This document shows, one piece after another, positions 1 through 44,478 of a stretch of 64,000 nt of DNA; position 1 is the first letter of the stretch; every line of letters starts with the position of its first letter. The notes under the pieces are model-generated. The model ran no database searches, was not told the DNA's origin, and worked only from the letters and a program-made list of their open reading frames with translations. Origin of the DNA: Phage NC-G; the sequence record MK310184, one strand, 5' to 3'. The position numbers were made by a program, and so were the translations under genes.

Positions 1-1560
1 GAAACCACTGCAGGAACTTCTAAAGTTTTGGCTGTAAGCCCTTCTGGTTTAAAATATGTAGTACAGACCGAAACCACTTGGGAAGCTACTGCGCTTCGTC
101 GTGGATTTGTTAAATTGACCGAAGGCGCTTTGACTTACTCAGGAAATAAAGTTACCGGTTCCGGTGTTAAATTTAACTCGGGTACAGGCCTTTATGAGAA
201 TGACGATACTGTTCTGAATGCAGCCAACTATCCTAAAACAGGTTATGCGGTTTCATCTTACGAGATGAATAAAACTTTACAGAACTTTTTACCTATAAAT
301 GCTACGGCGGTGAACTCCGAGAAATTGGATGGCCTGGATTCACTTCAGTTCATTCGTAGAGACGTCGACCAAACGGTTAATGGTTCTTTAACCCTGACCA
401 AACAATTGAACCTGGCGGCCCCTCTGGTGTCTTCTAGTACTGCTACATTTACGGATGTTACAGCTACTAATTCTACCTTTGGTACAGTGAACGTTGTTAA
501 CGGAACTAATAAATGGAAAATAACATCTCCATCTACCGGAACTACGTTAACTATCGGTGATACTACTAACGTATTAACCATGAACACTGCTACAGGTAAT
601 GTTGCTGCACTTAACAACCTTAGCGCGGGTAATGATGTTCAAGCCAAAAATAACTTTGTGTTAAATGGAAGAACTATCGCAACCACCACCGGTGAAGCTT
701 CTGGTGCTACATTGTCTTTAGGCGATAACTCACAGAATTTAGTGCTCAAAACTCTTGATGCTGGTAATATCATAGCAAATGGTGGCGGTGCATTTAAAGT
801 TCTTACTGAGAAAAACGCAGTAGAAATTGTAGACAGAAACTTTGTTAACCAAGCCGGTGATACAATGTCCGGTGTACTCCGTGTGAATGCTCCGGTTCGT
901 GTATTTGGTACTAAGCCTACTCTTGCTTCTCAGGTTCCTACTGCGGAAACAGTCGGCTTCTGGTCTGTTGATATCAATGACGAGGCCACTTATAGTAAGT
1001 TCCCTGGTTACTGGACTATGAAGACCAAACGTCAGGTTAATATCGATACGGTCCAAACTAAACCTGCTGGTGTTTCTGATGAGGTATGGAATGCTTCTGG
1101 TTGGTTAACGGAAACCGGTGCATTTAGTTCTCCAGCTATTCGTTATCGTAACGAAGACGGTAGTTTTGGTGATGAAGTTCTTGGTACGTCTGGCCAGAAA
1201 TTACGTGGCGCTTGGTTTGATTATTCTGTTCGTGATAAGGAAGTTAAATACCCGGGTACATTAACTCAGTTTGGTAATACGTTAGATTCATGTTATCAGG
1301 ATTGGGTGTGCTATCCTACAGGACTGAATGGCGGTACTATCCGTTACACCCGTACCTGGCAGAAGAATAAAAACGCATGGACTACGTTCTCAATGGTCTA
1401 TACGGCAGATAACCCTCCTTCTGCAGAAGATGTTGGTGCATTGCCTGCTGATAACGCTACAATGGGTAACATTACAATCCTTGATTGGTTGCGTATTGGT
1501 AACGTTCGCATTATTCCTGACCCGGTCACTAAATCCGTTAAGTTTGAGTGGATTGAATAA
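1..1560 (+). CDS. 34: Long tail fibre proximal subunit gp34, C-terminal 510 aa (5' end lies outside the window)
   Basis: Reading frame is open from base 1 (track ORF 28..1560 begins at a TTG); lies directly upstream of 35-36-37-38 in T4 order; Thr/Asn/Gly-rich fibre-like composition. Confidence 0.75.
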   Translation, partial: ETTAGTSKVLAVSPSGLKYVVQTETTWEATALRRGFVKLTEGALTYSGNKVTGSGVKFNSGTGLYENDDTVLNAANYPKTGYAVSSYEMNKTLQNFLPINATAVNSEKLDGLDSLQFIRRDVDQTVNGSLTLTKQLNLAAPLVSSSTATFTDVTATNSTFGTVNVVNGTNKWKITSPSTGTTLTIGDTTNVLTMNTATGNVAALNNLSAGNDVQAKNNFVLNGRTIATTTGEASGATLSLGDNSQNLVLKTLDAGNIIANGGGAFKVLTEKNAVEIVDRNFVNQAGDTMSGVLRVNAPVRVFGTKPTLASQVPTAETVGFWSVDINDEATYSKFPGYWTMKTKRQVNIDTVQTKPAGVSDEVWNASGWLTETGAFSSPAIRYRNEDGSFGDEVLGTSGQKLRGAWFDYSVRDKEVKYPGTLTQFGNTLDSCYQDWVCYPTGLNGGTIRYTRTWQKNKNAWTTFSMVYTADNPPSAEDVGALPADNATMGNITILDWLRIGNVRIIPDPVTKSVKFEWIE

Positions 1561-1568
1561 GAGGTATT

Positions 1569-2690
1569 ATGGAAAGATTTATGGCAGAATTTGGACAAGG
1601 ATATGTCCAGGTTCCTACATTATCTGAAAACAATGCTGTAAGGTATAAACTTAGTATAGCTGGTAGTTGTACTAAGTCTACTAAAAAGGCGTATGTTAAA
1701 TTTCAAGATGGGGACTTCGGTCCCCAGAATTTTCAAAATGGACTAAACCTTATAGAAATTGATGTTAGTGCCGAACCTAAAGTGGTGGCTAACAAAACTT
1801 ATAGCTTTACAAAAGATTTTGATGTTATCTCTGAAGCTTTTATTACTTACATAAGTTCAATACCAGCCAATAGAATAGTTTGTTTAGTATCTTCCGGTAG
1901 ATTAAATGCTTCACAGAAACTTATTGATTGGTTCCGTGCAGCTGGAAGTACCGCATTTCCATCTAAATGGCTAATAGACCGCTTCGAGCCGTCTTATTCG
2001 GCCTTTTATGTGTCTGGTAGAAATACTATAGTGATGGAACATGTCCTTTATAATGATGGGGTGTTTGTTGAAGATGTTTCTACACCGTTAGAAGTCGTTT
2101 TTGACGATATCAGTGATGTAGGCGGGACCGGGTATCCTATAAGAATAGTGGAAGATGAAAACACTTATCTAAGTAATGGTGGGGAGGAAATAAAACGTTT
2201 CCCTACTGAATCTCCTACTACTCCTTGCGCTGATTATAATATGAAGCCTGGAGAATTCTTTTACCTTAAATTCCAAATGATGTGTGACCAGGAATTAAAA
2301 GATTTAGGGACTTCTCAAATGTCTGTTAGATTTTTTGATTCTAATAATGCTTTAACCGGTACGGTAAATATGGAAGTCCCATCTAATGTCCCTGCCGGGT
2401 CTTGGATGACTTTTGAGCGGGTAATTGAAGTTCCTGCTAATACTGAAACATTTACATTGTATGCAAGAAAAACAGTGGCCGATGGAGTTGGCGGTGTACG
2501 TAATGTGATGTTTGGGGAAGTATCAGAGCCAGAATCACAGCCTAAATCGGCTGAATTTGGTGTAAATGGTATTCGTATGAATTTCGGTACCGAAACTAAG
2601 AATATGGGTACTACCATAGCCCAGTTATACGATAAAACAGGTACTAAACCGGGACAGGTTTGGGTGTCTGAATTTAGAGAAAAATATTAA
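1569..2690 (+). CDS. 35: Tail fibre hinge protein gp35
   Basis: 373 aa (T4 gp35 is 372 aa); synteny between 34 and 36. Confidence 0.75.
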   Translation: MERFMAEFGQGYVQVPTLSENNAVRYKLSIAGSCTKSTKKAYVKFQDGDFGPQNFQNGLNLIEIDVSAEPKVVANKTYSFTKDFDVISEAFITYISSIPANRIVCLVSSGRLNASQKLIDWFRAAGSTAFPSKWLIDRFEPSYSAFYVSGRNTIVMEHVLYNDGVFVEDVSTPLEVVFDDISDVGGTGYPIRIVEDENTYLSNGGEEIKRFPTESPTTPCADYNMKPGEFFYLKFQMMCDQELKDLGTSQMSVRFFDSNNALTGTVNMEVPSNVPAGSWMTFERVIEVPANTETFTLYARKTVADGVGGVRNVMFGEVSEPESQPKSAEFGVNGIRMNFGTETKNMGTTIAQLYDKTGTKPGQVWVSEFREKY

Positions 2691-2712
2691 GGAACCTTCG
2701 GGTTCCTTTTTC
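2691..2712 (+). terminator. Rho-independent terminator after gene 35
   Basis: GGAACC-TTCG-GGTTCC hairpin followed by TTTTT. Confidence 0.6.
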
Positions 2713-2765
2713 GTTTTCTACAGCCATAAATATATAAAAGGCTATAACTCCCAAAGGAAACTCAA

Positions 2766-3413
2766 ATGGCAGATTTAAAATTAGGTTCTACAGCAGGAGG
2801 TTCGGTATTATGGCACCAAGGTAATTTCCCCTTAACGCCCGTATCAAATGACCTTCTTTACAAAACATATAAAGTTTACACCGAGTATAATAAACCTCAA
2901 GCAGTTGATAACGATTTCGTTTCAAAAGCTAACGGTGGTAATTATCAGAACAACGTGTATTTTGAAAAAGGTTTGACCTTTAATGATACTAATGGATATG
3001 GTATTAAATTAGGAGCAAGAACAGGTGGAGCCCCGTTCACAGCTTCTTTCCGTATTAAAGGTGCTTTTGGATATGAAACGGAAGACGGTACTCCGTTTGT
3101 GATATTTGACCCAAGTACAGTAGTGGGTGCTAAACGTCTTACCGTAATGGGTGATTCATTATTCCGCCAAGTATATGATGAATCGGGCCGCGTATTCAGC
3201 CCTGGCAACACCCCTACTAAGGCCCAAGTTGGATTGTCATTAGTAGATAACGCAAAACAGGTCCAAATAAATAATACTAATATGCAAACCATGACTGGAG
3301 TACTTGCTGCTCCTAACTTCATTTCATTAAATCCGGCCTCTGACGCAGGACATGTTCCGCGTTTCGACCAGATTGTTATTAAAGATTCTATCCAAGATTT
3401 TGGTTATTATTAA
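2766..3413 (+). CDS. 36: Small distal tail fibre subunit gp36
   Basis: 215 aa (T4 gp36 is 221 aa); synteny. Confidence 0.75.
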   Translation: MADLKLGSTAGGSVLWHQGNFPLTPVSNDLLYKTYKVYTEYNKPQAVDNDFVSKANGGNYQNNVYFEKGLTFNDTNGYGIKLGARTGGAPFTASFRIKGAFGYETEDGTPFVIFDPSTVVGAKRLTVMGDSLFRQVYDESGRVFSPGNTPTKAQVGLSLVDNAKQVQINNTNMQTMTGVLAAPNFISLNPASDAGHVPRFDQIVIKDSIQDFGYY

Positions 3414-3421
3414 GAGGCATT

Positions 3422-6400
3422 ATGGCTACTTTAAAACAGATACAATTTAAAAGAAGTAAAGTAGCTGGTGTACGTCCTACGCCAGCGCAGTTGGCTGAAG
3501 GCGAGCTGGCTATTAACTTAAAAGACCGTTTGTTATTTACCAAAGATGACACTGGAGCGATTATCGACCTTGGCTTTGCTAAAGGTGGTAATATTGACGG
3601 TAACGTTATCCATAAAGGAAATTACACCCAGACAGGCGATTACGCCCTAAATGGTACCTTTACCCAAACCGGCGATTTTAATTTAACCGGTATTGCTCGT
3701 GTAACTCGTGATATTATTGCCGCAGGTCAGATATTGACCCACGGTGGCGAACTTATTTCTAAGAGTGCCTCAACTTCTCACCTTCGTTTCTTTGATGGCA
3801 ATGACCGTGAACGTGGTATTATCTTTTCTCCTAATAATGCAGGAGCAACCAACCAAGTAGTTAATATTCGAGTACAAGATTATTCTACTGCAAGCGAAAG
3901 CACTTATGCATTTTCAGGCAGTGGTTTGTTCACTTCACCTGAAGTATCAGCATGGAAATCTATTTCATCTCCACAAATTCTGACCGATAAAGTTATTACA
4001 AACGGGAAGAAGGCAGGCGATTATGATATCTATTCAATGGCTGATAATAGCCCATTGTCTGAAAGCGAAACAGCTATTAACCACCTTCGTGTTATGCGAA
4101 ATGCCGTAGGTGCTGGTGTATTCCATGAAGTTAAAGATAATGACGGGTTAACCTGGTATGCTGGAGATGGATTGGACGCTTATCTTTGGTCATTTACATG
4201 GTCAGGTGGATTGAAAGCGGGTCATTCCATGTCTGTTGGTCTTCCAGGTGGCCCTAAAGGATATTCTGAATTAGGAACAGCTTCAATTGCTCTTGGTGAT
4301 AATAATACCGGATTTAAATGGCATCAGGATGGATATTTCCATACAGTAAACAACGGCACAAGAACTTTCATCTACGGGCCGGAAGAAACACAAAGCCTTA
4401 GAAAAATGGTTATGGGCTATTCTCCGGATGGGGTTCTTATGACAACGCCGCCGGCAGAAAATTATGCCTTAGCTACTGTTGTCACTTATCATGATAATAA
4501 CGCGTATGGTGATGGTCAAACTCTTTTAGGTTATTATCAAGGTGGTAATTATCACCATTATTTCCGTGGTAAGGGTACTACAAACATTAACACCGCCGGT
4601 GGTTTGTTGGTTACTCCTGGTAATATTGATGTCGTTGGTGGTTCAGTTAATATTGATGGCCGTAATAACAACTCGGTTTTGCTTTTTAAAGGTTATACTG
4701 CTGGCCAGAGCTCTGTTGATAATATGTCTATTGCTGTATGGGGTAACACCTTTAACACGGTAGACGGCTTTCGTAAAAACGTGATGGAAATATCTGATGG
4801 TATTAGCTGGATGCATTATATTCAGCGTAATAAAGATAATACCATTGAGGCCGTATTAAATGGTCAACAAACTATTAACGAAAATCTTGTTGTCAAAAAA
4901 GATATTTTAGTTGATAAGGCGGTCCACACCGCCGGCGAAATTACTACAAGTGCCGTTAATGGGCTCCGCATCTGGAACGCAGATTATGGAGCCATTTTTA
5001 GACGTTCAGAAGAAAGTCTTCATATTATTCCAACTGCTTATGGCGAAGGCAAAAATGGCGATATCGGTCCACTTCGCCCGTTTAGTATGGCTTTAGATAC
5101 TGGTAAAGTTACTATTCCAGATTTACAATCAAAATACAATACGATCACTGCGAACGGCTATATTAAATTTGTTGGCCATGGTGCAGGCGCTGGTGGTTAT
5201 GATATTCAATATGCTCAAGCAGCTCCTGTTTTCCAGGAAATTGATGATGATGCTGTAAGCAAATATTATCCTATTGTTAAGCAAAAATTCTTACAAGGAA
5301 AAGCTGTTTGGTCTTTAGGTACTGAAATTAATTCTGGGACTTTTGTTTTGCACCATCTTAAAGAAGACGGGACCCAGGGTCATACCTCAAGATTTAATGC
5401 CGATGGTACAGTTAATTTCCCTGATAACGTGCAGGTTGGCGGTGGTGAAGCTACTATTGCTCGTAATGGTAACATCTTCTCTGATATTTGGAAAGTATTT
5501 ACCTCTGCCGGTGATATAACTAACATTCACGATGCTATTGCCTCTCGTGTTGCTAAAGAAGGCGATACAATGACAGGTAAGCTGACTATTGCCGCTGCGG
5601 ATGATGCTTTATTGATTAAAGCCCCGAATGCCAATAATAGTTCTCATATCCGTTCAGAAGTCGCCGGTTCTAATAGCTGGTTTGTTGGTAAAGGCGGTGA
5701 AAGTGATACGGTATCTTTTTATAACTACAAAACAACAACCGGTCTAGATTTGAGTGATAATGGAGTAATTTCATTTAGTCCTAAATCATTTAATTTAGCT
5801 CAAATGAGTGAAAACCGCCTGTGGATTAATGGAACAAGATGGGTTGCCACAAATCCAGGCGCTATTAGCGGACAATTCGCACTTGAGGCTCCTTTATTTG
5901 TAGAACACGGCTACCTGAATGGTAACGTTTATTACCCGATTGTTAAAGGCCGAAGTTCTTCTGCAGGGTTTGGATACACGTCCTCCGTAGAGCTAGGTAC
6001 TTTACGCAGTGGTAATGCGGACTGGGCCACTGGTTGTATAATTGTTCGTTCAGCTGAAAATACACCAGAACAAGGACATCCTGCAGCGGTTTATCAATTT
6101 AAGGCCAACGGCCAGTTTAGTTCCCCGGGAAGAATTGTTTCAGGATGGACAGGTATGGGTGTAGGTGTTGAACCCGCCTGGACTACGCCGTGTATTGCTA
6201 TTGGCGACAATGACACTGGATTGCTCTGGGAAAGCGATGGCGTCTACAACATGTATGCTAACGGGCAAGGTGTATTCAGTATTCGAGCCGGACTTGCTCA
6301 GACATTCGGTGGTGTTAACTTACACTGTAATGCAGGTATGTATGTTCGTGATAACATTGATGTTAACGACGTTTATATTCGTTCTGATATTCGTTGTAAG

Positions 6401-6729: not shown

Positions 6730-7509
6730 ATGGCAGTAGTAGGAATTCCTGGTTGGATTGGAACTTCAGCGGTTGCTGAAACAGGCCAGCGTTGGATGTC
6801 AGCGGCCTCTAGAGAATTACGTCTAGGGAACCCATCTTGGATGTCCCAATTTGCTGGTCGCTCAAGAGAAATTATTCACACACTTGGCGCCGACCATAAC
6901 TTTAATGGGCAATGGTTTAGAGACCGTTGTTTTGAAGCCGGCGGTGCTCCTATAGTGTTTAATATCACAGGCAACTTAGTATCATATACTAAAGATGTTC
7001 CGTTGTTCTTTATGTACGGTGATACCCCTAACGAATATGTTACTTTGAATATTCATGGTGGTGTTCATATGTGGGGCCGAGGTGGCAACGGTACAGTAAA
7101 TGGAAGCCCAGGCACTAATGGTGGTGACGTAATCCAAAATGATATTGGTGGACGACTTCGCATTTGGAATTATGGCGTGATAGCCTCCGGTGGTGGTGGT
7201 GGCGGTGCCGCATCATTACAGAATAGTTGGCCTGCAAATGCTACAGCAGGTGGCGGCGGCGGCAGGCCATTTGGTCTCGGCGGTGGTGGTGTTAATTGGC
7301 CAGGCGGCAATGCTAGTTATGATGGTCCAGGTGGCGGTGGTAATGCAAGCCAATTTGGCGGCGGCAATGGCGGTGATGCTGGAGGCGCTGGCGGCGATGG
7401 ATGGGGTAATCACTTATCCAGGTCGGGTGGTGGTGCTCCTGGTAGAGCAGTATTCGGTTCCTCTCCATCATGGGGCGCTACAGGCACCATCTACGGCTCT
7501 TGGTTATAA
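6730..7509 (+). CDS. 38: T2-type tail fibre adhesin gp38 with glycine-rich motifs
   Basis: 259 aa; runs of GGGGG alternating with short variable segments in the C-terminal half; synteny after gene 37. Confidence 0.8.
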
Positions 7510-7525
7510 TACGAAAGTATTAAAT

Positions 7526-7533
7526 TATAAATA
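7526..7533 (+). promoter_or_regulatory. T4-type late promoter for holin gene t
   Basis: Exact TATAAATA about 19 nt upstream of the t start codon. Confidence 0.6.
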
Positions 7534-7551
7534 TCTTTAAAGGAGAAAAGT

Positions 7552-8205
7552 ATGGAACCAAAAGTAGGATTTTCATTATCAGACCTACTTTTTGGACTTC
7601 TTGATAGAATTTTTAAAGATACTTCTTCCGGGAAAGTTGTTTTTTCCCGGGTCCTAGTCGTAATATTATTGTTCTTTATGGCATTAGTTTGGTATAAAGG
7701 CGAGCATATTCTAAACTTTTATAAAGAGACAACTTATGCCTCTTATACTGAAATGATTAGACAAGACCAGGACAATAGATTTAAAATTGCGGCTATCGAG
7801 CAGCTCCGAATAGTGCATTCTTCTTCAGGCGCAGACTTCACAGCAATATATTCTTTTAGACCAACCAACATGAATTATTTTGTGGACATGGTTGCTTATG
7901 AGGGTAAATTACCGGAAACGGTAGACGCAAAAAATACGGGAGGATTTCCGATTGACAAAACGTCAGTAGAGTATATGGCGGGAGTTAACGGAAACTATTT
8001 TGAATCAAGTACAGAAACTGTGTTCCTTCCTACAAAGAAGAAAACCCAATTCACGTATATGTTTTCATGCCCGTTTTTTAATTTGGATAACATCTATGCC
8101 GGCTCGATATCATTATACTGGTATGACATCAAACCGGATTTAGGATTTCCTAGACTTTCGTCTATGTGTGGTCAGGCTGGGAGGACATTAGGTCGAACTC
8201 GTTAA
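7552..8205 (+). CDS. t: Holin T
   Basis: 217 aa; LLFGLLDR...VVILLFFMALVWY motif and length match T4 holin (218 aa) from memory. Confidence 0.9.
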   Translation: MEPKVGFSLSDLLFGLLDRIFKDTSSGKVVFSRVLVVILLFFMALVWYKGEHILNFYKETTYASYTEMIRQDQDNRFKIAAIEQLRIVHSSSGADFTAIYSFRPTNMNYFVDMVAYEGKLPETVDAKNTGGFPIDKTSVEYMAGVNGNYFESSTETVFLPTKKKTQFTYMFSCPFFNLDNIYAGSISLYWYDIKPDLGFPRLSSMCGQAGRTLGRTR

Positions 8206-8477
8206 AAATTGGAGGTATACATCATTAAGTAACGGTGTATATCTTCATACCCTTCATTAAATTGCTCAATAAGAGTATCACGTTCATCTTCAGTTAAAGA
8301 CTTAAAGAGTTTATTAAAAGATAGACCGTTAAGTTCCTTTCCATGTTCATTACGAATACCCAACTCATTCAAAAAGGCAATAAACTCATCACGACGTTGC
8401 ATGATGTCTTCACAATCCGTTTTAATCAAAATAGAAACAATGGTAGCAATTTCGGAAACGATTTCAATTTTAGTCAT
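8202..8477 (-). CDS. asiA: Anti-sigma-70 factor AsiA
   Basis: 91 aa; SILIK...FIAFLNE...EQFNEGYE...RYLMMYT resembles T4 AsiA (90 aa); its stop overlaps the stop of t. Confidence 0.85.
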   Translation of the reverse strand: MTKIEIVSEIATIVSILIKTDCEDIMQRRDEFIAFLNELGIRNEHGKELNGLSFNKLFKSLTEDERDTLIEQFNEGYEDIHRYLMMYTSNF

Positions 8478-8789
8478 TTTAATTTACTCAAGTATTCAAT
8501 AGGACATTCATTTATTCAGTAATAATATTGTAACACTATTCTTCTGGGTTGTACACCTGATTTTTCATCCGTACAACATATTCCTGATACATTTCTTCGA
8601 TAGGTTCCTGGAACTTAAAATCAGCTCCTAGGAATTCCTCAAAGCACGCCTGCTCACGCGTACGCATACCTGTTACGGTGTTCTCTAAGTTATGACTCAT
8701 ACCCTTTACCCTTATGTTTCTGCTTACGCTTAGACTCTTTAAAATTTTTCTTCTTATCTTTATGGACGGAAGCCTTATTGAAATCGTGC

Positions 8790-9074
8790 TTAGCTACCAG
8801 ATTGTTCATCACGTAATTTCCTTAATTGATATTCAAGAGAACTGATAATTTCTTTATTAGTTGCAATATACATATCACGTAGGAACGGCTTCAACCCTTC
8901 CATATTCCCATGGATTGTCTTGGAACTAATATTCTTTATATATTCATGGTCTAATGCATCCCAAGCAGGTTGGTTGACATAAGTTCCCCAATTATCTTCC
9001 ACCATAACATTCAGACGTTTAATATGGTTGATATGGGCTTCGATTGCATCAATCTGGAGTTGTTTAAGATTCAT
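8790..9074 (-). CDS. Hypothetical early protein (arn region)
   Basis: 94-aa ORF, tightly packed. Confidence 0.45.
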   Translation of the reverse strand: MNLKQLQIDAIEAHINHIKRLNVMVEDNWGTYVNQPAWDALDHEYIKNISSKTIHGNMEGLKPFLRDMYIATNKEIISSLEYQLRKLRDEQSGS

Positions 9075-9562
9075 TAGTAAAGGTCCTCAGAGTAAAGTTC
9101 TTTTTCACTACCACCACGTTCAATACGAACTTGGTTAGCATATGTTGCAATAATCATTGCTTCTTCGCGAGTCCAATAGTTTGAATATTGGTCAATAAAT
9201 CCTTGGTCATCGCCACAAACATGGTCTGACACAAGTTTATCACTTACCTGGTCAAGCACTTCTGCCATATCTTTAGAATAATGTCGAGCGCCAGGAATAA
9301 CCAAAGTCCCACCGTCTTTTAACTTAAAGCGGTTGGCTGCACATACAATCCTACGCTGATATTTTTCATTGTTGTTCCAATAAGCAATCTGCCAACAGAT
9401 TTCAGGAACCTCTTCCAAAACATCCTCTTCCGAATATTCAGCGTAATCGCCGTAGGCCTGTAATTTAGCTGCTAAGCTTTCAGGCGTCTCGCGAGAAAGG
9501 GCTTTATCCAACAGGGCCATACGGTCTTTAAAGGATAATTCTTTACCTTTTAATGGATTCAT
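9074..9562 (-). CDS. Hypothetical early protein
   Basis: 162-aa ORF; start overlaps the stop of the upstream gene. Confidence 0.5.
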
Positions 9563-9906
9563 TTGAAAATCACCTTACGGCCATTATCTTTAGCAAATTC
9601 TTGAATTTTGGTGGCGGTATCAATTAAATCACCTTTATAATAGGATGATAATTTAATATCAACTGTTTGGGCCACGCCATGCGAAGTTATGTTTACTTTT
9701 TCTATAAAAATAATCTCAAGAAACCGCAATAACTGCATACCGAATTCAAGATGAACATTGTCAATCTGGAGATTGAGTTGATAAATTTTCTTAATACCAT
9801 TTACCAAAGCTACACGTTCGTCCCAATCATTACGCTGTTCTTCAATCAATTTAAGGGAATGACCTTCGCCGTCCCAGTTAAGTTCCATCGGAATCATTTG
9901 AACCAC
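9559..9906 (-). CDS. Hypothetical early protein
   Basis: 115-aa ORF with 4-nt overlap. Confidence 0.5.
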
Positions 9907-19301: not shown

Positions 19302-19505
19302 TCAATTCAGGTTACGTTTAAAAATATCTGCTACTTCAAGGAGCTCGTCCTTAGTAGCGATGTCGTTGAGTATTTTATATCTGATTTCTTTAAAGCGTTC
19401 TTTAAAATCCTCAGCCGCATTGATATCAAAAAAACGTTGGATTAACCGGAATTCTTTATGAACAGCTTTATCAAACAAATCAATATTGACTTTAAAGTTT
19501 GTCAT
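19302..19505 (-). CDS. Hypothetical protein (rIIA.1 position)
   Basis: 67-aa ORF. Confidence 0.45.
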   Translation of the reverse strand: MTNFKVNIDLFDKAVHKEFRLIQRFFDINAAEDFKERFKEIRYKILNDIATKDELLEVADIFKRNLN

Positions 19506-19815
19506 TTTTAACTACCTCATGTTGAACATATTCTCTGGTAGAACCTAGTTCAGCCAGAATTCTTCTCATAGAACCCATTGTACTTTTGTGCTCTCTGTGG
19601 CGATACAATATCTCTAAAACCTTTTCCTGGACAACAGGAGAGAGCGCCTGGTTATCTTTAATCTTTAAGGCAATAGATTTTACAGCCTTTAAGTATTCTA
19701 ACCCCTTACCGCTTGTAATCACTACTCCTTCATCTTTACAGTTACGAATAGCCGTTTCCATAAAGGATAAAGCCAAGTTGTCAGTGTTCACTATACTATT
19801 ATCTTGCATAATCAT
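19492..19815 (-). CDS. Hypothetical early protein
   Basis: 107-aa ORF. Confidence 0.45.
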   Translation of the reverse strand: MIMQDNSIVNTDNLALSFMETAIRNCKDEGVVITSGKGLEYLKAVKSIALKIKDNQALSPVVQEKVLEILYRHREHKSTMGSMRRILAELGSTREYVQHEVVKNDKL

Positions 19816-31895: not shown

Positions 31896-32417
31896 TTAAT
31901 ATCCATTATCCTGGCGTTCAAAATTATGTTTGTTCTTCAGGTAGTACAATTTAAAGATTTCTTCAGCAGTAAGACCAAGACCTTGGAACATATTCAGAAC
32001 GAAATGGAGAATATCAATCATTTCAAATTTGATTTCAAGCTGGTCTTCAGGAGACAGTTCATCGATACGACGATTTCGATATTCAGCATGTTGCGCCTTC
32101 CACGGCTTCCATACACTGCTGGCGGCTTTTTCACCATTGCTCATACCACCAAGTGAAGTCAGCAGTTCACGGAATTCATCATCAATATAATCTTTCTGAT
32201 TACGTAGCCAATCAACAACATCACCAGCAGTGGCCAATTCATCAGGATGTTTGTTATGTTCAGGCTTGTCATTTGCCAGACGAACCTGTAAAGATTTCTG
32301 CATATCAAGCATTACCTGCAACGGGTCTTTATCTTCGTGAATAAGAGCATTAAAATAAGCTTCTTCAGCTTTATCAACACCAGCAATCAGTTGTGAACAT
32401 TCGTTAAAGTGCGCCAT
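31896..32417 (-). CDS. 56: dCTP pyrophosphatase gp56
   Basis: Start at MAHFNEC; ...DPLQVMLDMQ...ETAGDVV.W.R.QKD.IDDEFRELLTSLG...LYYLKNK.NF.RQD.GY matches T4 gp56 from memory. Confidence 0.9.
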   Translation of the reverse strand: MAHFNECSQLIAGVDKAEEAYFNALIHEDKDPLQVMLDMQKSLQVRLANDKPEHNKHPDELATAGDVVDWLRNQKDYIDDEFRELLTSLGGMSNGEKAASSVWKPWKAQHAEYRNRRIDELSPEDQLEIKFEMIDILHFVLNMFQGLGLTAEEIFKLYYLKNKHNFERQDNGY

Positions 32418-37624: not shown

Positions 37625-37938
37625 CTCTTAGATTTAATTTTATCCAGTTCTTCTTGTATTTGCATTGTAACACATTTTTCTACATGAAGCGCTAGCTCTT
37701 CTTTTCGGTCTTCGGAAGGCGTTCCGAAATCAACCGACACTTTTCCATCTTTCTCAATAACAATATTCATCACATAAACGATGTGAGCAGTGCCATCGGG
37801 TAATGTAAGCATAATTTCCTGCTTAACAGAACCCATTGACTTACGGATTATATCTAACGATTTCTCATAATAACGAGGGTCACTAGGACCCTCTTCAGTA
37901 TCTTTAACAAAATTATCTAAATCAGATAAATCAGTCAT
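37609..37938 (-). CDS. 40: Protein at the gene 40 position
   Basis: 109 aa; synteny between 41 and uvsX. Confidence 0.5.
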   Translation of the reverse strand: MTDLSDLDNFVKDTEEGPSDPRYYEKSLDIIRKSMGSVKQEIMLTLPDGTAHIVYVMNIVIEKDGKVSVDFGTPSEDRKEELALHVEKCVTMQIQEELDKIKSKRWWKW

Positions 37939-39103
37939 CTAAATCCATCTCTTCTAAATCGTTTTCGATATCAGCAGCGCTTTGAGTGTCACCACCCAAT
38001 TTAACTGCAACGTTTTTAGAGACACGAGAGTTAATAAGGTCGTTCACCGCATCATCGACTTCTTTAATAGAATTAATTGCACCGAGCTTATACTTATTCT
38101 CGATTGCTTCACGGAATGGAGCATGTTTAAACAGCGGTCCCCAGAACTCAACACAATCGGTAGCTTTAGCACGCCATGATTTTTCTTCTTGAACCATTTC
38201 ACCTGTGGTTTCGTCAAGGAATGCACGATTATACCAACCAGCTTTAGGTTTCACGACAAAGCCAATATCAGTAGCCATTTCGAGCAGACCACTAAATGGG
38301 TCAATACCACCTTCAAAGTTCACAGTAATTGGGAACGTTGATTTCTCTTTAACAGTACGAGATTTTTCGGCCTTCAGGGTGAAGTCATAACCAGTGAGCT
38401 CGGTTCCATCTTTAACCTGACGTTTGGAGATAAAGAACACGGTAGAAGCAGAGTACAGAATACCAGTACCACCACCCATAATCTCTTTAGGATACATTCC
38501 ACCAATTTCCATAGCCGTATGGTTAATTGCTACACAAGGAATATCCTTGATAGTCAGATAAGGTGTTACGATACGGAACAGAGATTTCAAAGACTTAGCA
38601 CGAGTCATATCACCTACAACTTTCTCGTTCAAAGCATCTTCGGTTTCTTTCTTAGAAGCAGTGTTACCGATGGAGTCGATAAAGATAATAACCTTTTCGC
38701 CACGAGTAATTTCTTCTAATTGGTTGGTCATGTCAACCTTCAGTTGTTCGACCGACTGGATTGGCGTATGAACCACACGTTCCAGGTCAACACCCATTGA
38801 ACGGAAATAAGATTCTGAAGCACCAAACTCAGAGTCATAGAACAAACAAATTGCGTCTGGATATTTCTTCATATATGCCGCAACCATAGTTAATCCAAAC
38901 AACGTTTTAAAGTGTTTAGACGGCGCAGCAAAGATTGTCAAACCTGATTGTAAGCCTGCATTCAATGCACCACCCAATGCAATATTAAGCATAGGAATAC
39001 GAGTAGGAACTTCGTCACGACCATTAAACAATTTAGATTTGGTCAGGTCGGCAGTCATTTTAGAAGTAGAAGCTTTAATCAAACGGGATTTTAAATCAGA
39101 CAT
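37931..39103 (-). CDS. uvsX: UvsX recombinase (RecA-like)
   Basis: 390 aa; MSDLKSRLIKASTSK...GPSK...FDSE...ETEDALNEKVV.DMTRAK..KSLFRIVTPY matches T4 UvsX (391 aa) from memory. Confidence 0.9.
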   Translation of the reverse strand: MSDLKSRLIKASTSKMTADLTKSKLFNGRDEVPTRIPMLNIALGGALNAGLQSGLTIFAAPSKHFKTLFGLTMVAAYMKKYPDAICLFYDSEFGASESYFRSMGVDLERVVHTPIQSVEQLKVDMTNQLEEITRGEKVIIFIDSIGNTASKKETEDALNEKVVGDMTRAKSLKSLFRIVTPYLTIKDIPCVAINHTAMEIGGMYPKEIMGGGTGILYSASTVFFISKRQVKDGTELTGYDFTLKAEKSRTVKEKSTFPITVNFEGGIDPFSGLLEMATDIGFVVKPKAGWYNRAFLDETTGEMVQEEKSWRAKATDCVEFWGPLFKHAPFREAIENKYKLGAINSIKEVDDAVNDLINSRVSKNVAVKLGGDTQSAADIENDLEEMDLDD

Positions 39104-39305: not shown

Positions 39306-40199
39306 CTAGCATACTACGTCCTCATAACGTGGCATTTCGTATTCAGAATGAATATTGGCACCGAAATAAATGAATTCAGCCAGACCAGGATGAAATACTA
39401 AACCTGGGTTCTCATGATAAATGATATGTGGTCTTGATTTCAGAATTTGATAATATTCAACCTTACTCGGTTTGAATTTAATAATCTCTACATCAGGACG
39501 ATAGTCTTCACGTTTAAATGAATCGTTAGGGTCGGTGATATAAAGACGAGCACCTTCAGCCGCAGCTTGGTCTACAACTCTTTCGAATTGATAACACTTA
39601 TCTGAAATACGGAACGGATGGAAAATACCATCAATTTTAATAGGCGCTAGACCTTCAGAGTAACGCTCAATTACTGCCGGATTAATTACCTTTTGGTCTA
39701 CAAAAATTTTATCAGAGGATGCACCTCGTGACACCAGGACGTCTTTCTGGCATTGATTCAGCACTGTAGTATAAAGTGAACGTTCAACTGAAGCCACATC
39801 AATATCAATGAACTCGTCGATATAATAACGAGGAACTTCAGGGTCCATTGTGATATTAAAGTTGAATTGTACAGTATGAGCGCCGTCATAACCGGTGATA
39901 TCGGTTACTAGTCCTGAGCAATCATAGTATTCGATTAGAGAATCGACTACAAACTCGTTTTCAGACCAGAAATGTTTACGGGTTTCATAAGCATTTTCTT
40001 TATACCAAAGTGGTACGAAATTCAGTTCTGGGAATAATTCAATGCATTCTTTGATATCGCTCGAATTTCTAGGATAAGCCAGATAATCACCTGGACGAGC
40101 ACGATTTAAATGGAGTTGAAAATTACCGTCCTTAAGGACGGCATATTCACCTGTTTCGTAACTACGCATACTGAAAATAGGAACGATAAACAGACTCAT
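39306..40199 (-). CDS. Hypothetical protein at the beta-glucosyltransferase position; candidate DNA-modifying transferase
   Basis: 297 aa; no recognisable similarity to T4 beta-gt (351 aa); last gene of the coupled operon with gene 42; contains a DxD-like FIDIDV. Confidence 0.35.
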   Translation of the reverse strand: MSLFIVPIFSMRSYETGEYAVLKDGNFQLHLNRARPGDYLAYPRNSSDIKECIELFPELNFVPLWYKENAYETRKHFWSENEFVVDSLIEYYDCSGLVTDITGYDGAHTVQFNFNITMDPEVPRYYIDEFIDIDVASVERSLYTTVLNQCQKDVLVSRGASSDKIFVDQKVINPAVIERYSEGLAPIKIDGIFHPFRISDKCYQFERVVDQAAAEGARLYITDPNDSFKREDYRPDVEIIKFKPSKVEYYQILKSRPHIIYHENPGLVFHPGLAEFIYFGANIHSEYEMPRYEDVVC

Positions 40200-40894
40200 T
40201 TCAGGAAACCTCGGACGTAGTCAAAATCACGTTCAAACACGTGTGCACTTACCATGGTGTGGGAATACGTACCTAAACCGACACCACACTGTTCAGCAAT
40301 AAATGCCATCAGTTTACCCTGCAGATAGAAATCCAGTTGCATAACAACAGCGCAGTTTTGTGAACGCATATGGGTATGTGCATACAAACGTCCGTCACGG
40401 ATATAATACGTCACCGAATCAGTGCATGGATATTCTAAGGATTCGTCAGAATCAAGGAGGGCTTGGTCTTGTTCTTGGAGAATCTGGAACACAACTCTTC
40501 GCGAGTTAGCCTTTTCTTTAAGCTCTTTAAGTAGGGCTGGGAGTTGGGCCACAATTCGAGGTCCATAGAAAGTGTTGAAGTTTGCAGGCAATACGTCACT
40601 TTTCGGCTTATCAATGAACTTAGCAACATTAGGATATTCCTTAAATGCTTCGGCAGCGTCAGTACCACCAGAAATCATAAATTTCCAAAAGGATTCGGCA
40701 TATTCGTAACTAATACGATTGATACGTGGGTCGGTGAATTTATAGGTGCTGGCATCCAGTACTTCTATCGAAGCAGAACCAATTTCATAACAACGTCCGA
40801 TACGAGAATCAACTGCAAACTGCGGAGCTTCCAGGATTTCTTCGTTCATTTGTTTAAATGCATTTTCAAAACTAACAGCGGTAATGTGTTTCAT
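40196..40894 (-). CDS. 42: dCMP hydroxymethylase gp42 (thymidylate synthase family)
   Basis: 232 aa; catalytic-site block PCTDSVTYYIRDGRLYAHTHMRSQNCAVVMQLDFY versus T4 MCTNTVQYLIRDKKINAVVNMRSNDVVFGF (from memory). Confidence 0.8.
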   Translation of the reverse strand: MKHITAVSFENAFKQMNEEILEAPQFAVDSRIGRCYEIGSASIEVLDASTYKFTDPRINRISYEYAESFWKFMISGGTDAAEAFKEYPNVAKFIDKPKSDVLPANFNTFYGPRIVAQLPALLKELKEKANSRRVVFQILQEQDQALLDSDESLEYPCTDSVTYYIRDGRLYAHTHMRSQNCAVVMQLDFYLQGKLMAFIAEQCGVGLGTYSHTMVSAHVFERDFDYVRGFLK

Positions 40895-41427
40895 TTATTC
40901 ACCTTATTTTCAATATATTCGTTCAGACGTTTTAATTCTACCATATCAACATTAAGCAAATTATTATGGCCGTCATGATTTAAGATTTTAAACACGTTTT
41001 CAAAACATGTTTCGTATTGCCGGATAGTTAGGTTGAACTCATCTTTGGTTAATTTAATAAGGTCGTCTTCAAAGTCTTCATCTAATGGATTACGAGTTAA
41101 AATAACCTCGATAACATTAAATTCGGATTTAAACCCTTTCCAATCTTCCAGTTCTACATAAGGGTCCATTTCACCACGAAGGAATCCTGAGTAAACAATA
41201 TTACTTGGATAACCGCGGTCAAGGATGTAGACGAAATTAGGGTCTAAAAACTTATACAGAGTTTCAACTAAGGCCTTATCGTTATCAGTTCCTAATGAAA
41301 TACATTTACCATTAATCTTTTTAGGAAAATCAATAAGACGATATTTCTTATCGGATAACAGATTTTTAATTAAAGTAGACTTCCCGGAATTATCCGGGCC
41401 GTCTATAACAATGATTTTTGGATTCAT
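40891..41427 (-). CDS. P-loop kinase, thymidylate/dNMP-kinase-like
   Basis: 178 aa; Walker A IIVIDGPDNSGKSTL; DRGYPSNIVYSG resembles the Tmk DR(Y/H)xxSxxAY motif. Confidence 0.55.
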   Translation of the reverse strand: MNPKIIVIDGPDNSGKSTLIKNLLSDKKYRLIDFPKKINGKCISLGTDNDKALVETLYKFLDPNFVYILDRGYPSNIVYSGFLRGEMDPYVELEDWKGFKSEFNVIEVILTRNPLDEDFEDDLIKLTKDEFNLTIRQYETCFENVFKILNHDGHNNLLNVDMVELKRLNEYIENKVNK

Positions 41428-41807
41428 GGATGATAGGCCTTATAACTATCAAGAGTTCCTTCACGAACCATTTCTTTAAAGTGGTCAGGACGGATTGCTC
41501 GGTCATCGATGATAAAAGTATAACTCGGCTTGTGTGTAAGCAAATTGTGGTATTTCAATCCAATTTTTTCAAGGTTCTTAACCAATGCAGGAACTACTTC
41601 AACCAAGATTCGACCTGGGCCACATGAAGTCATGCCACGGGCGGTGAACAATGTAATCTCGTACCCTTCATCATAAAGCTTATTAATCATGGACACCATT
41701 TCGGTGTCCGGTTTAAAGTTCTCATAATCACGGTCATGGTTCCAAATCGTGATTGTGTTATCGATATCAAAACATAAATGTGGCTTATTTTCTACTCGAT
41801 GCGACAT
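41424..41807 (-). CDS. HAD-superfamily phosphatase, small capless type
   Basis: Motif I FDIDNTIT, motif II ITLFTARG, motif IV FIIDDR; start at MSHRVENK overlapping the upstream stop by 1 nt. Confidence 0.55.
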   Translation of the reverse strand: MSHRVENKPHLCFDIDNTITIWNHDRDYENFKPDTEMVSMINKLYDEGYEITLFTARGMTSCGPGRILVEVVPALVKNLEKIGLKYHNLLTHKPSYTFIIDDRAIRPDHFKEMVREGTLDSYKAYHP

Positions 41808-43480
41808 TAAATTTTCTTCCATTGTTTGTGGAGTTCAGTAGAACCTGTAGGTTTATATTTTACACCAGTTTCCTGGTCAAGCAAAACCCACTTATCAGGA
41901 CAACGAGTAATAATTTGAGCCGTAATAGGGTCACGAACTTCATCGACAAATTCACCAGTAATAAGCTTACGCTTACGAGGATGCCGCTTCAGCAGCACAC
42001 TCAGTTGGTACAAACCGTTATAATAAGCACCTAGAGCTTTCAGAGGGTTATTCTTAAAGTAACCTGCCAGAGCCATCCAAATAACAGCAATCCAGAGCTT
42101 GTGCTTAAATGTGCACATAGGAATATCGTCTAAAGGCATAACCTTTTCAATATCAACGAACACACGAGTCCCATTACGAGTTAAGCCACCCCATAGAGGG
42201 TCTGAGTTAAATTTGTCATAGCCATCGATAGAATAAAGCACCTTAGCTTCATCATAAATCGCAGGGCCTTTAGAACTATTACCGAAATAACCACGTGGGT
42301 CGATGATTTTAATATCACCTTCATCTGACAGCATAATATTACTGTAGTGTGGGTCGCCATGAATAAGTTGGTACGGCTCTTTATGTTCAGACAGAATTTC
42401 TAATGCATGGCGGAGAAGTTTTTCAGGGTCGCCTACCTTGAAGTCATTAACGTGGGTAATGCCTTGTGGAGCAAAGCCTTCAATCAATCCGGCAATAGAA
42501 GCATTACGAATAAGGACCTTGTCCAATACTTCTTTCTTAACATCGGAATACCATTGCTCATCGGACGGGTTATCGATAGTTCCACCGAATGAACGTAATG
42601 CACTAATGACCTTATAAACCATGAGGACTTTAGTTTCTTTAGACATAAACCGGTAGGCATCTGCCATGGTACGACCAAAGATACGTTCCATTTTAATGAA
42701 TTCGCCTGGAGAAAAGTCTACAATGCTAGGAACGAATTCAGAATCAATAGAATTATACCAATTGATTTCTTTAGATTGAATTTCTTTACCTAATTCGTTA
42801 GTTGGTACTTTAATGGCCAGATTCTCGGTGAACTCTAATTTATTAAATTCACGGTTAATTTCAGATTCTTCATGGGCTTTAGCCAGTTTCAATTTGTCAC
42901 CGACATCAACTACAAAGTCCAGTTTACGTTCAGTCAAATAGACCATTGAATCCAGGTTATCAGCAAGGTCTTCGCCATAATTAGAACGGTCGAAACCTGT
43001 CCAATTGGCTACCTGATACAAACCAACTACGCCACCACCCGTACCAATTTCACGTAAGTACGGTTCTTCAAATGTAAAGCGACAGTCAGTTCCATAGGTA
43101 TAACAGTAGTCGTTACCCCATTCAACTTTATGACCAATAGGAATGATGTCACACCAGTTAAACAAGACATTATGGCCAATGATATCTTCGGCAATGCAAT
43201 CAATAGCATGAGCTGAACCATTAGCAACGTCAACGTTACGAATAGTGAATTTAGGCTTATCACCAGTAATCATGTTAATGGATTTAATATAGCCTTTAAC
43301 GAGGTCGTTAAATTTGCTGTGAATAACCAGAATAATTTCATCTGATTGGTTACTATACAAATCATACAAATGCTTTAATACCGTATGTTGTTTGTAGTTA
43401 ACCAATACCTTCGGGATTTCGTTAGTAATTGGATACAACCGTGAGCCAAGACCCGCGCCTAAAATAACAACCTTTTTCAT
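41807..43480 (-). CDS. Bifunctional sugar-1-phosphate nucleotidyltransferase / protein-kinase-like phosphotransferase
   Basis: N-terminal VVILGAGLGSRLYPITNEIPKVLV (RmlA/GlmU/LicC-type); C-terminal LIHGDPHYSNIML...IKIIDPRG (APH/choline-kinase-type); start at MKKVV after GAGGA. Confidence 0.6.
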   Translation of the reverse strand: MKKVVILGAGLGSRLYPITNEIPKVLVNYKQHTVLKHLYDLYSNQSDEIILVIHSKFNDLVKGYIKSINMITGDKPKFTIRNVDVANGSAHAIDCIAEDIIGHNVLFNWCDIIPIGHKVEWGNDYCYTYGTDCRFTFEEPYLREIGTGGGVVGLYQVANWTGFDRSNYGEDLADNLDSMVYLTERKLDFVVDVGDKLKLAKAHEESEINREFNKLEFTENLAIKVPTNELGKEIQSKEINWYNSIDSEFVPSIVDFSPGEFIKMERIFGRTMADAYRFMSKETKVLMVYKVISALRSFGGTIDNPSDEQWYSDVKKEVLDKVLIRNASIAGLIEGFAPQGITHVNDFKVGDPEKLLRHALEILSEHKEPYQLIHGDPHYSNIMLSDEGDIKIIDPRGYFGNSSKGPAIYDEAKVLYSIDGYDKFNSDPLWGGLTRNGTRVFVDIEKVMPLDDIPMCTFKHKLWIAVIWMALAGYFKNNPLKALGAYYNGLYQLSVLLKRHPRKRKLITGEFVDEVRDPITAQIITRCPDKWVLLDQETGVKYKPTGSTELHKQWKKI

Positions 43481-43539
43481 TATCTGTTCCTCAAGTGAAT
43501 GTAGGTACATTATACACTATTTTTAATAAATTCTATTGC

Positions 43540-44040
43540 TTAAATCTTATCTTTACCGTATTCCATACACTGTTCTACTGCAGCAGGCACTTTGGTCTTA
43601 AGCTTGTTGATTTGTTTCTTATAATCACGCGCCTTATCGAAGCTCTCGGTTTCGAGCATTTCGTAATAACGAGCCTCATGAATAGAAACCTGTAAATTGA
43701 TATGGTTTACACACATCGCATACAGTTTCTGCTTTTTGTACAAATCATCTTGGCGCTTCATTTCTGCCTGGTGTTTGGCTAGTACCGCTTCACGCTTAGA
43801 CTCTTGTTCACGTTGGAATTCGATTTCCCTTTGAGCATATTTTGCGCAGTTATTACCGCATTGATTATTAGCTCGGGTATACACAAGTCCAGAACCGGCA
43901 CGGAATTTCATTTCGCCATCGAATTGTTTCTGTTCGGCTGCAATACGAGCTTTACCAACTTCATCAGCTGAAACTGCATCACCGTATTGGACCGCGCAAC
44001 CTGATAGGAGCATACTCATTGCGATAATTAACTTTTTCAT
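43540..44040 (-). CDS. Putative lipoprotein
   Basis: 166 aa; signal peptide with lipobox LLSGC; Lys/Glu-rich coiled-coil C-terminal half. Confidence 0.5.
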   Translation of the reverse strand: MKKLIIAMSMLLSGCAVQYGDAVSADEVGKARIAAEQKQFDGEMKFRAGSGLVYTRANNQCGNNCAKYAQREIEFQREQESKREAVLAKHQAEMKRQDDLYKKQKLYAMCVNHINLQVSIHEARYYEMLETESFDKARDYKKQINKLKTKVPAAVEQCMEYGKDKI

Positions 44041-44181
44041 AATATCCTCAATTAAAACAGTTATACTTAATTTGTGCTATAAGAATAATCCATCCCATGA
44101 TTAATGTTGGAATCATTGGAGGAATTGCCACTGCCCAATAAATGGTAAAGGCAGCCATTATAAGAAATAAAATAATTATCT

Positions 44182-44418
44182 TCATTGTTTAACGATAATG
44201 ATTTGTGCGTTTGATTTACGTTCAGCGACGATAGCCCAGATTAAAGCCACTACCCAACCAATCATCGTCCATCCTAACAGGAGATTAAGGAAGAAGATTC
44301 CGACATTGCTACGAGTGCCTCGCAGAAGAGCCAGAATCCATGGTAAAAAGTAACCAATGAACATAATAACCAGAGAACCGAATCCTAAAACACCAGCACT
44401 AACGATTAAAGCTTCCAT
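44182..44418 (-). CDS. Two-helix membrane protein at the imm position
   Basis: 78 aa with two hydrophobic helices; synteny directly upstream of gene 43. Confidence 0.45.
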   Translation of the reverse strand: MEALIVSAGVLGFGSLVIMFIGYFLPWILALLRGTRSNVGIFFLNLLLGWTMIGWVVALIWAIVAERKSNAQIIIVKQ

Positions 44419-44448: not shown

Positions 44449-44478
44449 ATAATACCACGTTCCCTGTGGTATGTAAAC
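44449..44478 (-). promoter_or_regulatory. Early promoter cassette
   Basis: GTTTAC, 18 nt, TATTAT. Confidence 0.5.

Follow-up and report, generated by a model that had tools for sequence, protein, structure and literature searches.

The closest described relatives of the system treated here are the gene clusters with which phage RB69 and others place arabinose on 5-hydroxycytosine (5hoC) in their DNA. The system itself is a five-gene operon on the minus strand of a 64,000 nucleotide stretch of Phage NC-G (sequence record MK310184), and we refer to this whole stretch as the window. The RB69 module was flagged as a candidate UDP-arabinose (uridine diphosphate arabinose) pathway, with a homologue noted in IME08, a relative of JS98 (Thomas et al. 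2018, PMC6024577). Mass spectrometry (MS) and nuclear magnetic resonance (NMR) showed that the arabinose in RB69 and DLP3 DNA is ether-linked to 5hoC and not to hydroxymethylcytosine (hmC) (Lee et al. 2026, PMC13326640). Another 2026 paper judges the previous arabinosyl-hmC assignment to be erroneous (PMC13390438). RB69 gp48 is a proven deoxycytidine monophosphate (dCMP) 5-hydroxylase: gp48 and DLP3 gp80 make 5-hydroxy-dCMP, incorporate 18O2 and bind a flavin similar to flavin mononucleotide (PMC13326640). The same paper reports that HY126 AfhE and AfhF convert arabinofuranose-5-phosphate to UDP-arabinose (PMC13326640). Shewanella phage Thanatos is reported to be mono-arabinosylated and to have a single transferase (PMC13326640), and both Dhakaviruses and Marfaviruses are named among the phages with a syntenic cluster (Lee et al. 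2026, PMC13326640).

The operon of the window is probably the Dhakavirus version of this pathway, in which the cytosine of the virion DNA would be replaced with arabinosylated 5hoC. By all testable criteria the system appears to belong with the arabinosyl-5hoC pathway of Mosigvirus, Acinetobacter and Serratia phages. The preliminary description of this DNA had proposed a cytosine hypermodification operon, which our analysis supports. A claim of novelty for the module does not stand: attention was drawn to it in 2018, and it was elucidated in 2025-2026. The kind of pathway and its assignment to the genus Dhakavirus are already published and the novelty is low. What is new here is the minimal, apparently host-dependent variant together with its diverged sugar-activating enzyme; in the literature text that could be searched we found no passage that discusses the lack of an isomerase, a U32-like gene and a second transferase.

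Genomic setting and gene arrangement

The region around the operon (5.5 kb) is 97.1-97.8% identical end to end to the Escherichia phages UP19, JS98, JS10, IME281 and dhaeg, with 97.8% for JS98 and UP19, and at least 80% of this 5.5 kb stretch is covered by 51 phage records. UP19 and IME341 are classified as Dhakavirus. The near-identity to Dhakavirus records identifies the window as a JS98-like T4 relative, a Dhakavirus coliphage, and not as an RB69-like Mosigvirus.

The operon consists of five consecutive open reading frames (ORFs) between 39306 and 43480, given here in order of transcription with the basis of each assignment:

41807-43480, minus strand: predicted bifunctional sugar-activating enzyme of 557 amino acids (aa), AfhE-like (Pfam, colinearity with HY126 AfhE, motifs)
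41424-41807, minus strand: predicted HAD phosphatase of 127 aa, AfhF-like (identity to RB69 gp51 and HY126 AfhF, TIGR01689, HAD-IIIA, motifs)
40891-41427, minus strand: thymidylate-kinase-like P-loop kinase of 178 aa (identity to RB69 gp45, PHROG 761, P-loop)
40196-40894, minus strand: predicted dCMP 5-hydroxylase (5-hydroxy-dCMP synthase) of 232 aa with thymidylate-synthase fold (identity to RB69 gp48, PDB matches, signature residues)
39306-40199, minus strand: putative DNA arabinosyltransferase 1 of 297 aa, for the first sugar on 5hoC (orthology and position)

The operon is flanked by uvsX (37931-39103) on one side and by a 166-aa ORF, imm and gene 43 on the other. The preliminary description had five minus-strand genes joined by overlapping stop and start codons, and this is what the sequence holds: the four junctions are, in transcription order, TAATG with a 1 nucleotide overlap and then three times ATGA with 4 nucleotide overlaps. 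Such junctions point to translational coupling of the five genes and argue for their co-expression.

The longest reading of the first gene has 567 aa. We regard the start at 43480, which gives 557 aa, as the credible one, because it is preceded by a GAGGA Shine-Dalgarno sequence and because the upstream in-frame ATG at 43510 lies inside a -10-like element. The two sites are:

43509-43516, minus strand: TGTATAAT, element resembling an extended -10 that lies just before the operon (consensus match only, putative function)
43488-43492: GAGGA ribosome-binding site of the 557-aa gene (read from the sequence)

All five ORFs are intact and syntenic across the 51 phage records. The ratio of nonsynonymous to synonymous substitution rates (dN/dS), calculated against UP19 and IME341 and thus within Dhakavirus, is 0.00-0.16 for all five genes and 0.006-0.04 for the 557-aa gene. 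For these reasons the five ORFs are real genes under strong purifying selection and not chance ORFs. Decay of the cluster was considered as well and rejected, as every ORF is intact and no dN/dS exceeds 0.16.

The public annotation of the locus is misleading. The HAD phosphatase is annotated as 'phosphoheptose isomerase', the hydroxylase as 'thymidylate synthase' or 'dCMP hydroxymethylase', and in the IME341 record the transferase gene is mislabelled 'RNA polymerase binding protein'.

The 232-aa protein is a predicted dCMP 5-hydroxylase

The 232-aa protein matches the Pfam family Thymidylat_synt (Pfam: PF00303) with E=3e-13. Sequence identity amounts to 79% with RB69 gp48 and 80% with the 238-aa enzyme of HY126, compared to 25% over 159 residues with T4 gp42. 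Its best matches in the PDB are 9iqu, 9iqc and 9ir2 (E=3e-125), while the T4 gp42 structure 1b49 is found with E=1e-4. The signature residues were read from a MAFFT alignment and are numbered on E. coli ThyA. The catalytic cysteine C146 as well as the exchanges L143E, N177D, D169N, W80A and G173V are the same in the 232-aa protein, RB69 gp48 and the HY126 enzyme; D169, W80 and G173 are retained in T4 gp42 and in the phage's own td enzyme. N177D is the cytosine-specificity position of the hydroxylase test, and an asparagine where E. coli ThyA has D169 was proposed as diagnostic of the hydroxylases and validated on nine further enzymes (Lee et al. 2026, PMC13326640). The 232-aa protein is thus an orthologue of the flavin-dependent dCMP 5-hydroxylase and not of the T4 gp42 hydroxymethylase, because it is 79-80% identical to proven hydroxylases, carries the D169N signature and has none of the features of the gp42 type, namely D169, the folate-site W80 and close similarity to gp42. 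Its activity as a hydroxylase is a prediction from homology.

The preliminary description had labelled this protein as the gene 42 dCMP hydroxymethylase and had the sugar attached to hmC. A folate-dependent enzyme of the gp42 type, with the sugar on the hydroxymethyl group, would agree with the membership of the 232-aa protein in the thymidylate-synthase superfamily, with the presence of N177D and L143E also in gp42, and with the listing of JS98 with a gene 42 allele in older reviews; RB69 itself was first reported as arabinosyl-hmC (PMC6024577). Against this stand the 25% identity to gp42 compared to 79-80% to proven hydroxylases, the residues N169 and A80 where gp42 keeps the aspartate and the conserved tryptophan, and the revision of the RB69 structure to 5hoC by NMR, MS and 18O2 labelling, with the earlier assignment called erroneous. 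The hmC reading is already largely refuted and we give it next to no probability. Both the enzyme label and the base chemistry of the preliminary description therefore fall, the latter since a hydroxylase orthologue predicts 5hoC. Of its statement that RB69-like phages carry arabinosyl-hmC, the link to RB69 stands, and the base is now arabinosyl-5hoC (PMC13326640; PMC13390438).

Predicted enzymes for sugar activation

The 557-aa protein has an NTP_transferase match at residues 13-110 (E=3e-8) and an APH match at residues 356-427 (E=1e-5) in Pfam. The sugar-1-phosphate nucleotidyltransferase domain spans approximately residues 1-215 (42836-43480) and the C-terminal APH-fold anomeric kinase domain approximately residues 216-557 (41810-42835). 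The protein is colinear with HY126 AfhE, residues 1-557 versus 1-562, with 42.7% identity (E=5e-143); with RB69 gp53 and gp52 it shares 44% and 41% of its residues. With the conserved motifs GAGLGSRL (GxGxRL), HGDPHYSN (HGDxxxxN) and IDPRGYFG (IDPRG), it possesses the AfhE-type architecture of a nucleotidyltransferase and an APH-fold kinase with intact motifs. MurU, GalU and methylthioribose kinase are matched weakly as well. A PDB search found no solved AfhE structure.

The 127-aa protein is 62% identical to RB69 gp51 and HY126 AfhF. It has no Pfam match, but is found by TIGR01689 (capsule biosynthesis phosphatase, E=1e-14) and by HAD-IIIA, and it keeps the HAD motifs DIDNT (DxDxT), TARG and IIDD (DD) of the AfhF type. 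It is predicted to strip the 5-phosphate off arabinofuranose-1,5-bisphosphate. A further, weak AfhF match (32103-32324 of the window, E=0.014) is part of the dCTPase gene, and we set it aside as spurious.

The domain calls of the preliminary description, a fusion of nucleotidyltransferase and APH domains, a minimal HAD phosphatase and a thymidylate-kinase-like P-loop protein, agree with the Pfam, TIGR01689 and HAD-IIIA matches and with the motifs. Its idea that a kinase, a phosphatase and a nucleotidyltransferase together make a nucleotide sugar from a sugar phosphate, with arabinose-5-phosphate among the candidates, corresponds to the published HY126 AfhE/AfhF route (PMC13326640).

The thymidylate-kinase-like protein and the putative transferase

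The 178-aa protein is 38% identical to RB69 gp45 and to the 182-aa protein of HY126, and 84% to the Marfa protein. It matches the thymidylate kinases of PHROG 761 (E=8e-40) as well as P-loop families in Pfam, and has the conserved motifs GPDNSGKS (P-loop), LDRGY and FEDDLI. The Tmk-like gene is listed simply as 'nucleotide kinase' in Table 1 of PMC13326640, and a Tmk-like kinase is present in every such cluster, including that of the hexose-using RL38J1 (PMC13326640). In Providencia phage PSTCR6 the cluster contains two tandem Tmk-like paralogues (7021-7581 and 7666-8265 of the retrieved stretch).

The gene of the 297-aa protein lies directly downstream of the hydroxylase gene, coupled to it by ATGA, and has the same position in RB69 and HY126. 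The protein is 70% identical to RB69 gp47, 65% to RB69 gp46, which together are a single gene broken by a sequencing error, and 67% to the 299-aa protein of HY126. It is a likely transferase, as the preliminary description had supposed, and is orthologous to the putative arabinosyltransferase for the first sugar in RB69 and HY126 (RB69 gp46:47 / DLP3 gp79 family). The assignment of this family to a GT-B-like fold comes from a published model of the RB69 orthologue (PMC13326640); a single-sequence AlphaFold model of the 297-aa protein has a predicted local distance difference test score (pLDDT) of 31.

The smallest version of the cluster

In the same interval, RB69 and HY126 additionally have genes for an arabinose-5-phosphate isomerase and a U32-peptidase-like protein as well as small ORFs, and their second transferase (gp3) is located between rIIA and gene 39. 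As isomerase query we used the HY126 protein (SIS, KdsD/GutQ-like), which is 99% identical to RB69 gp55. With an E-value limit of 0.1, tblastn gave no match for the isomerase, the U32-like protein or RB69 gp3, neither in the window nor in UP19, whose genome was searched in full. The window thus has neither the phage isomerase nor the second transferase and U32-like gp50 that characterise the full Mosigvirus-type cluster. Since these three genes are absent, the cluster of the window, with five genes, is the smallest version in this comparison. The rIIA-gene 39 interval of the window contains only ORFs of 53-107 aa; where RB69 has the second transferase there is a 107-aa DUF7367 protein (E=3e-44) at 19492-19815 on the minus strand.

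An AfhE-like protein is found in 367 records of the phage collection and the isomerase in only 276, and a sampled subset of the latter contained no Dhakavirus. The excess of AfhE is mostly due to Dhakavirus (51 records, at least 95% identity), Marfavirus-like phages of Klebsiella (23 records, ~80%) and Providencia-type phages. The AfhE proteins of Dhakavirus, Marfavirus and Providencia phage PSTCR6 form a subclade that is only ~43% identical to all others.

This correlation of the subclade with the absence of the isomerase fits a pathway of the same architecture with another sugar. The diverged AfhE would then activate a pentose phosphate that is abundant in the host, for example ribose-5-phosphate, and the product would be a non-arabinose glycosyl-5hoC. 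The AfhE and the Tmk-like kinase of the window share only 38-43% identity with their Mosigvirus counterparts, compared to 80% for the hydroxylase, neither the window nor UP19 has an isomerase gene, and a related phage enzyme is a UDP-xylose pyrophosphorylase in vitro according to the Thanatos authors. On the other hand, the HAD phosphatase (62%) and the transferase (67%) are still close to the enzymes of the arabinose pathway, and the hexose-using 5hoC phages (RL38J1) have quite different donor genes. In addition, enterobacterial hosts make arabinose-5-phosphate constitutively for 3-deoxy-D-manno-octulosonic acid (Kdo) via KdsD/GutQ. We consider another sugar unlikely and arabinose the probable one.

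Among the clusters that bear it, the U32-'peptidase'-like gene is the best conserved one (85-89% identity), and it was not found in Dhakavirus. RlhA and TrhP, which hydroxylate RNA pyrimidines at C5, are members of the U32 family, a kinship that is intriguing beside a cytosine-5-hydroxylation pathway. In the retrieved cluster stretches the U32-like genes are located as follows:

RB69: 4493-5662 (gp50)
Marfa: 7787-8947
PSTCR6: 8493-9656

The DNA polymerase gene of PSTCR6 is annotated in two pieces (68-4474 of the retrieved stretch) with an opposite-strand ORF of 374 aa between them.

Proposed pathway

Directly observed were the orthology of the proteins, catalytic motifs, the signature residues of the hydroxylase, selection of the purifying kind and the lack of accessory genes; from these we infer all enzymatic activities, the identity and number of the sugars and the timing of expression. 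The first substrate, dCMP, would be supplied by the dCTPase of the phage, following the T4 paradigm, in which this is the established role of the gp56-type enzyme (PMC2993671). Its gene lies outside the operon:

31896-32417, minus strand: gp56-type dCTPase/dUTPase (Pfam dUTPase_2, E=1e-6)

The 232-aa enzyme of thymidylate-synthase fold would then hydroxylate dCMP at C5, with flavin and O2 instead of folate. A gp1-type deoxynucleoside monophosphate (dNMP) kinase, possibly helped by the 178-aa kinase, and the host Ndk may make 5-hydroxy-dCTP, as homology suggests for RB69 gp159, and the gp43 polymerase would incorporate it. UP19 encodes a gp1-type dNMP kinase outside the region of the window. 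For the donor, homology suggests that D-arabinose-5-phosphate receives a second phosphate, at C1, through the APH-fold kinase of the 557-aa protein, that the 127-aa HAD enzyme removes the 5-phosphate and that the N-terminal domain of the 557-aa protein joins arabinofuranose-1-phosphate to UTP, which would yield UDP-arabinofuranose. The 297-aa transferase would finally put arabinofuranose on the 5-hydroxyl. With one transferase only, a single arabinose per cytosine is predicted, as reported for Thanatos (PMC13326640).

The genome size considered is ~171 kb, with 39.4% GC (PMC7552041). As there is no phage isomerase, the arabinose-5-phosphate would have to come from KdsD/GutQ of the host. A rough estimate gives ~67,000 cytosines per genome and, for a burst of 100-200, ~10^7 arabinose units. 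Because this is of the same order as the Kdo synthesis of the host per generation, a supply by the host is plausible for one sugar per base. This could also explain why di- and tri-arabinosylating phages have their own isomerase. The branch of Dhakavirus, Marfavirus and PSTCR6, with its diverged AfhE/HAD/Tmk block and without isomerase, may then be something other than a trimmed copy: it would depend on KdsD/GutQ of the host for each modified cytosine, or use another pentose phosphate to make an undescribed glycosyl-5hoC, and the Tmk-like kinase might act on the modified nucleotide. This is speculative and we give it a small chance only.

Several points weigh against arabinosylation of 5hoC by this operon. 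The sugar specificity of the 557-aa enzyme, for arabinose-5-phosphate and UTP, is not secured, because it is only ~43% identical to the characterised HY126 AfhE and belongs to the separate subclade of Dhakavirus, Marfavirus and PSTCR6 that coincides with isomerase loss. That the Tmk-like kinase might phosphorylate the modified nucleotide is an idea and not a finding. For the 297-aa protein, searches in Pfam (with the protein and 48 family members), in NCBIfam and in the PDB by phmmer and profile gave no glycosyltransferase signal, and hhalign of the family against RB69 gp3 and T4 beta-gt gave no signal. Single transferases showed no activity on 5hoC DNA in vitro, and the activity of the 297-aa family was not reproduced there (PMC13326640); nor could the authors tell DNA from the mononucleotide as the acceptor of the first sugar (Lee et al. 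2026, PMC13326640). Furthermore, our literature searches found no chemical analysis of the DNA of Dhakavirus or JS98.

The lack of in vitro activity could also mean that the transferase is inactive and the DNA carries bare 5hoC, or that the sugar module serves a target other than DNA, such as remodelling of the host envelope or capsule; the HAD protein does match a 'capsule biosynthesis phosphatase' family and is annotated as such in some records. However, the sugar genes appear translationally coupled to those of the dCMP hydroxylase and the transferase, the same gene set occurs in phages with proven arabinosylated DNA, and purifying selection acts strongly on each of the five genes, which makes a non-DNA target or an inactive transferase very unlikely. 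Arabinosylated 5hoC in the virion DNA is still the reading that we prefer.

Glycosylated cytosines determine which restriction, CRISPR and type IV systems stop T4-like phages, and Dhakaviruses are phage-therapy candidates. That their DNA probably contains arabinosyl-5hoC and not hmC matters for predicting defence sensitivity, for sequencing and cloning the DNA and for correcting public annotation. As a natural gene set for this modification the five-gene cluster would be the smallest, and it points to a dependence on the Kdo pathway of the host.

Regulation and neighbouring ORFs

The best site of the promoter scan is located just after gene 43 and upstream of imm:

44449-44477, minus strand: T4-early-like promoter match (TTTACA, 17 nucleotides, TATTAT, upstream TG; 10/12 matches)

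Transcription from this promoter-like site could read through into the operon. The scan for sigma-70 promoters and terminators found 19 sites, compared to 18.5 expected from shuffled sequence, and we therefore make no strong regulatory claim. A MotA box was sought upstream of the operon and none was found in the right orientation.

Between imm and the operon lies the 166-aa ORF (43540-44040, minus strand) with a lipoprotein signal peptide, MKKLIIAMSMLLSGC. It matches PHROG 1754, a family without assigned function, and neither Pfam nor NCBIfam gives a credible assignment. Its location beside the superinfection-immunity gene hints at a role in the envelope or in exclusion. A hydrophobic ORF of 45 aa (44051-44188, minus strand) is a conserved micro-gene: in HY126 and RB69 (gp54), a small ORF with 57% identity to it stands between the isomerase and AfhE genes, and the spacer between 42 and imm of T4 is similar as well.

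Comparison with known systems

T4 has the gene order 43, imm.1, imm, 42, beta-gt, segA, uvsX at this locus, so that the comparison with T4 in the preliminary description was essentially right. T4 gp42 and the alpha- and beta-glucosyltransferases follow the same strategy at the same position: dCMP is modified ahead of replication by an enzyme of thymidylate-synthase fold, whose gene is followed directly by that of a transferase. The difference is that T4 uses folate-dependent hydroxymethylation and host UDP-glucose, while flavin/O2 hydroxylation and phage-made UDP-arabinose are predicted here. The T4 glucosyltransferases and the 297-aa transferase are unrelated at the sequence level.

The HldE/GmhB and AmgK/MurU pathways share the logic of an anomeric kinase, a sugar-bisphosphate phosphatase and a nucleotidyltransferase. 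Their enzymes are found only by weak profile matches far under the family cut-offs (MurU, HddC-type transferases, and HAD-IIIA, which is the GmhB subfamily) and are remote homologues. The kinase of the window has the APH fold like AmgK and methylthioribose kinase, whereas the HldE kinase has a ribokinase fold.

The clusters of the Mosigviruses RB69 (gp45-gp55 and gp3) and HY126 (Afh proteins) share the five core genes with the window at 38-80% identity, and all five proteins of the operon are orthologous to theirs. The slot between gene 43 and uvsX is the same, and in both the transferase follows the hydroxylase directly. The window differs by lacking the isomerase (gp55), the U32-like gp50, gp49 and the second transferase gp3, by the low identity of AfhE and Tmk (38-43%), and by the place of the Tmk-like gene, which sits between phosphatase and hydroxylase and not at the end of the cluster as in Mosigvirus. 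PSTCR6 differs from the window in that a U32-like gene is also present.

The closest sequences are those of Klebsiella phage Marfa (Marfavirus), with 80%, 84%, 84%, 87% and 69% identity for AfhE, HAD, Tmk, hydroxylase and transferase. Like the window, Marfa has no isomerase beside the polymerase gene. It differs by a U32-like gene, 89% identical to that of HY126, which is kept between the Tmk-like gene and the hydroxylase and which the window lost or never had; otherwise its gene order of AfhE, HAD, Tmk, hydroxylase and transferase is that of the window.

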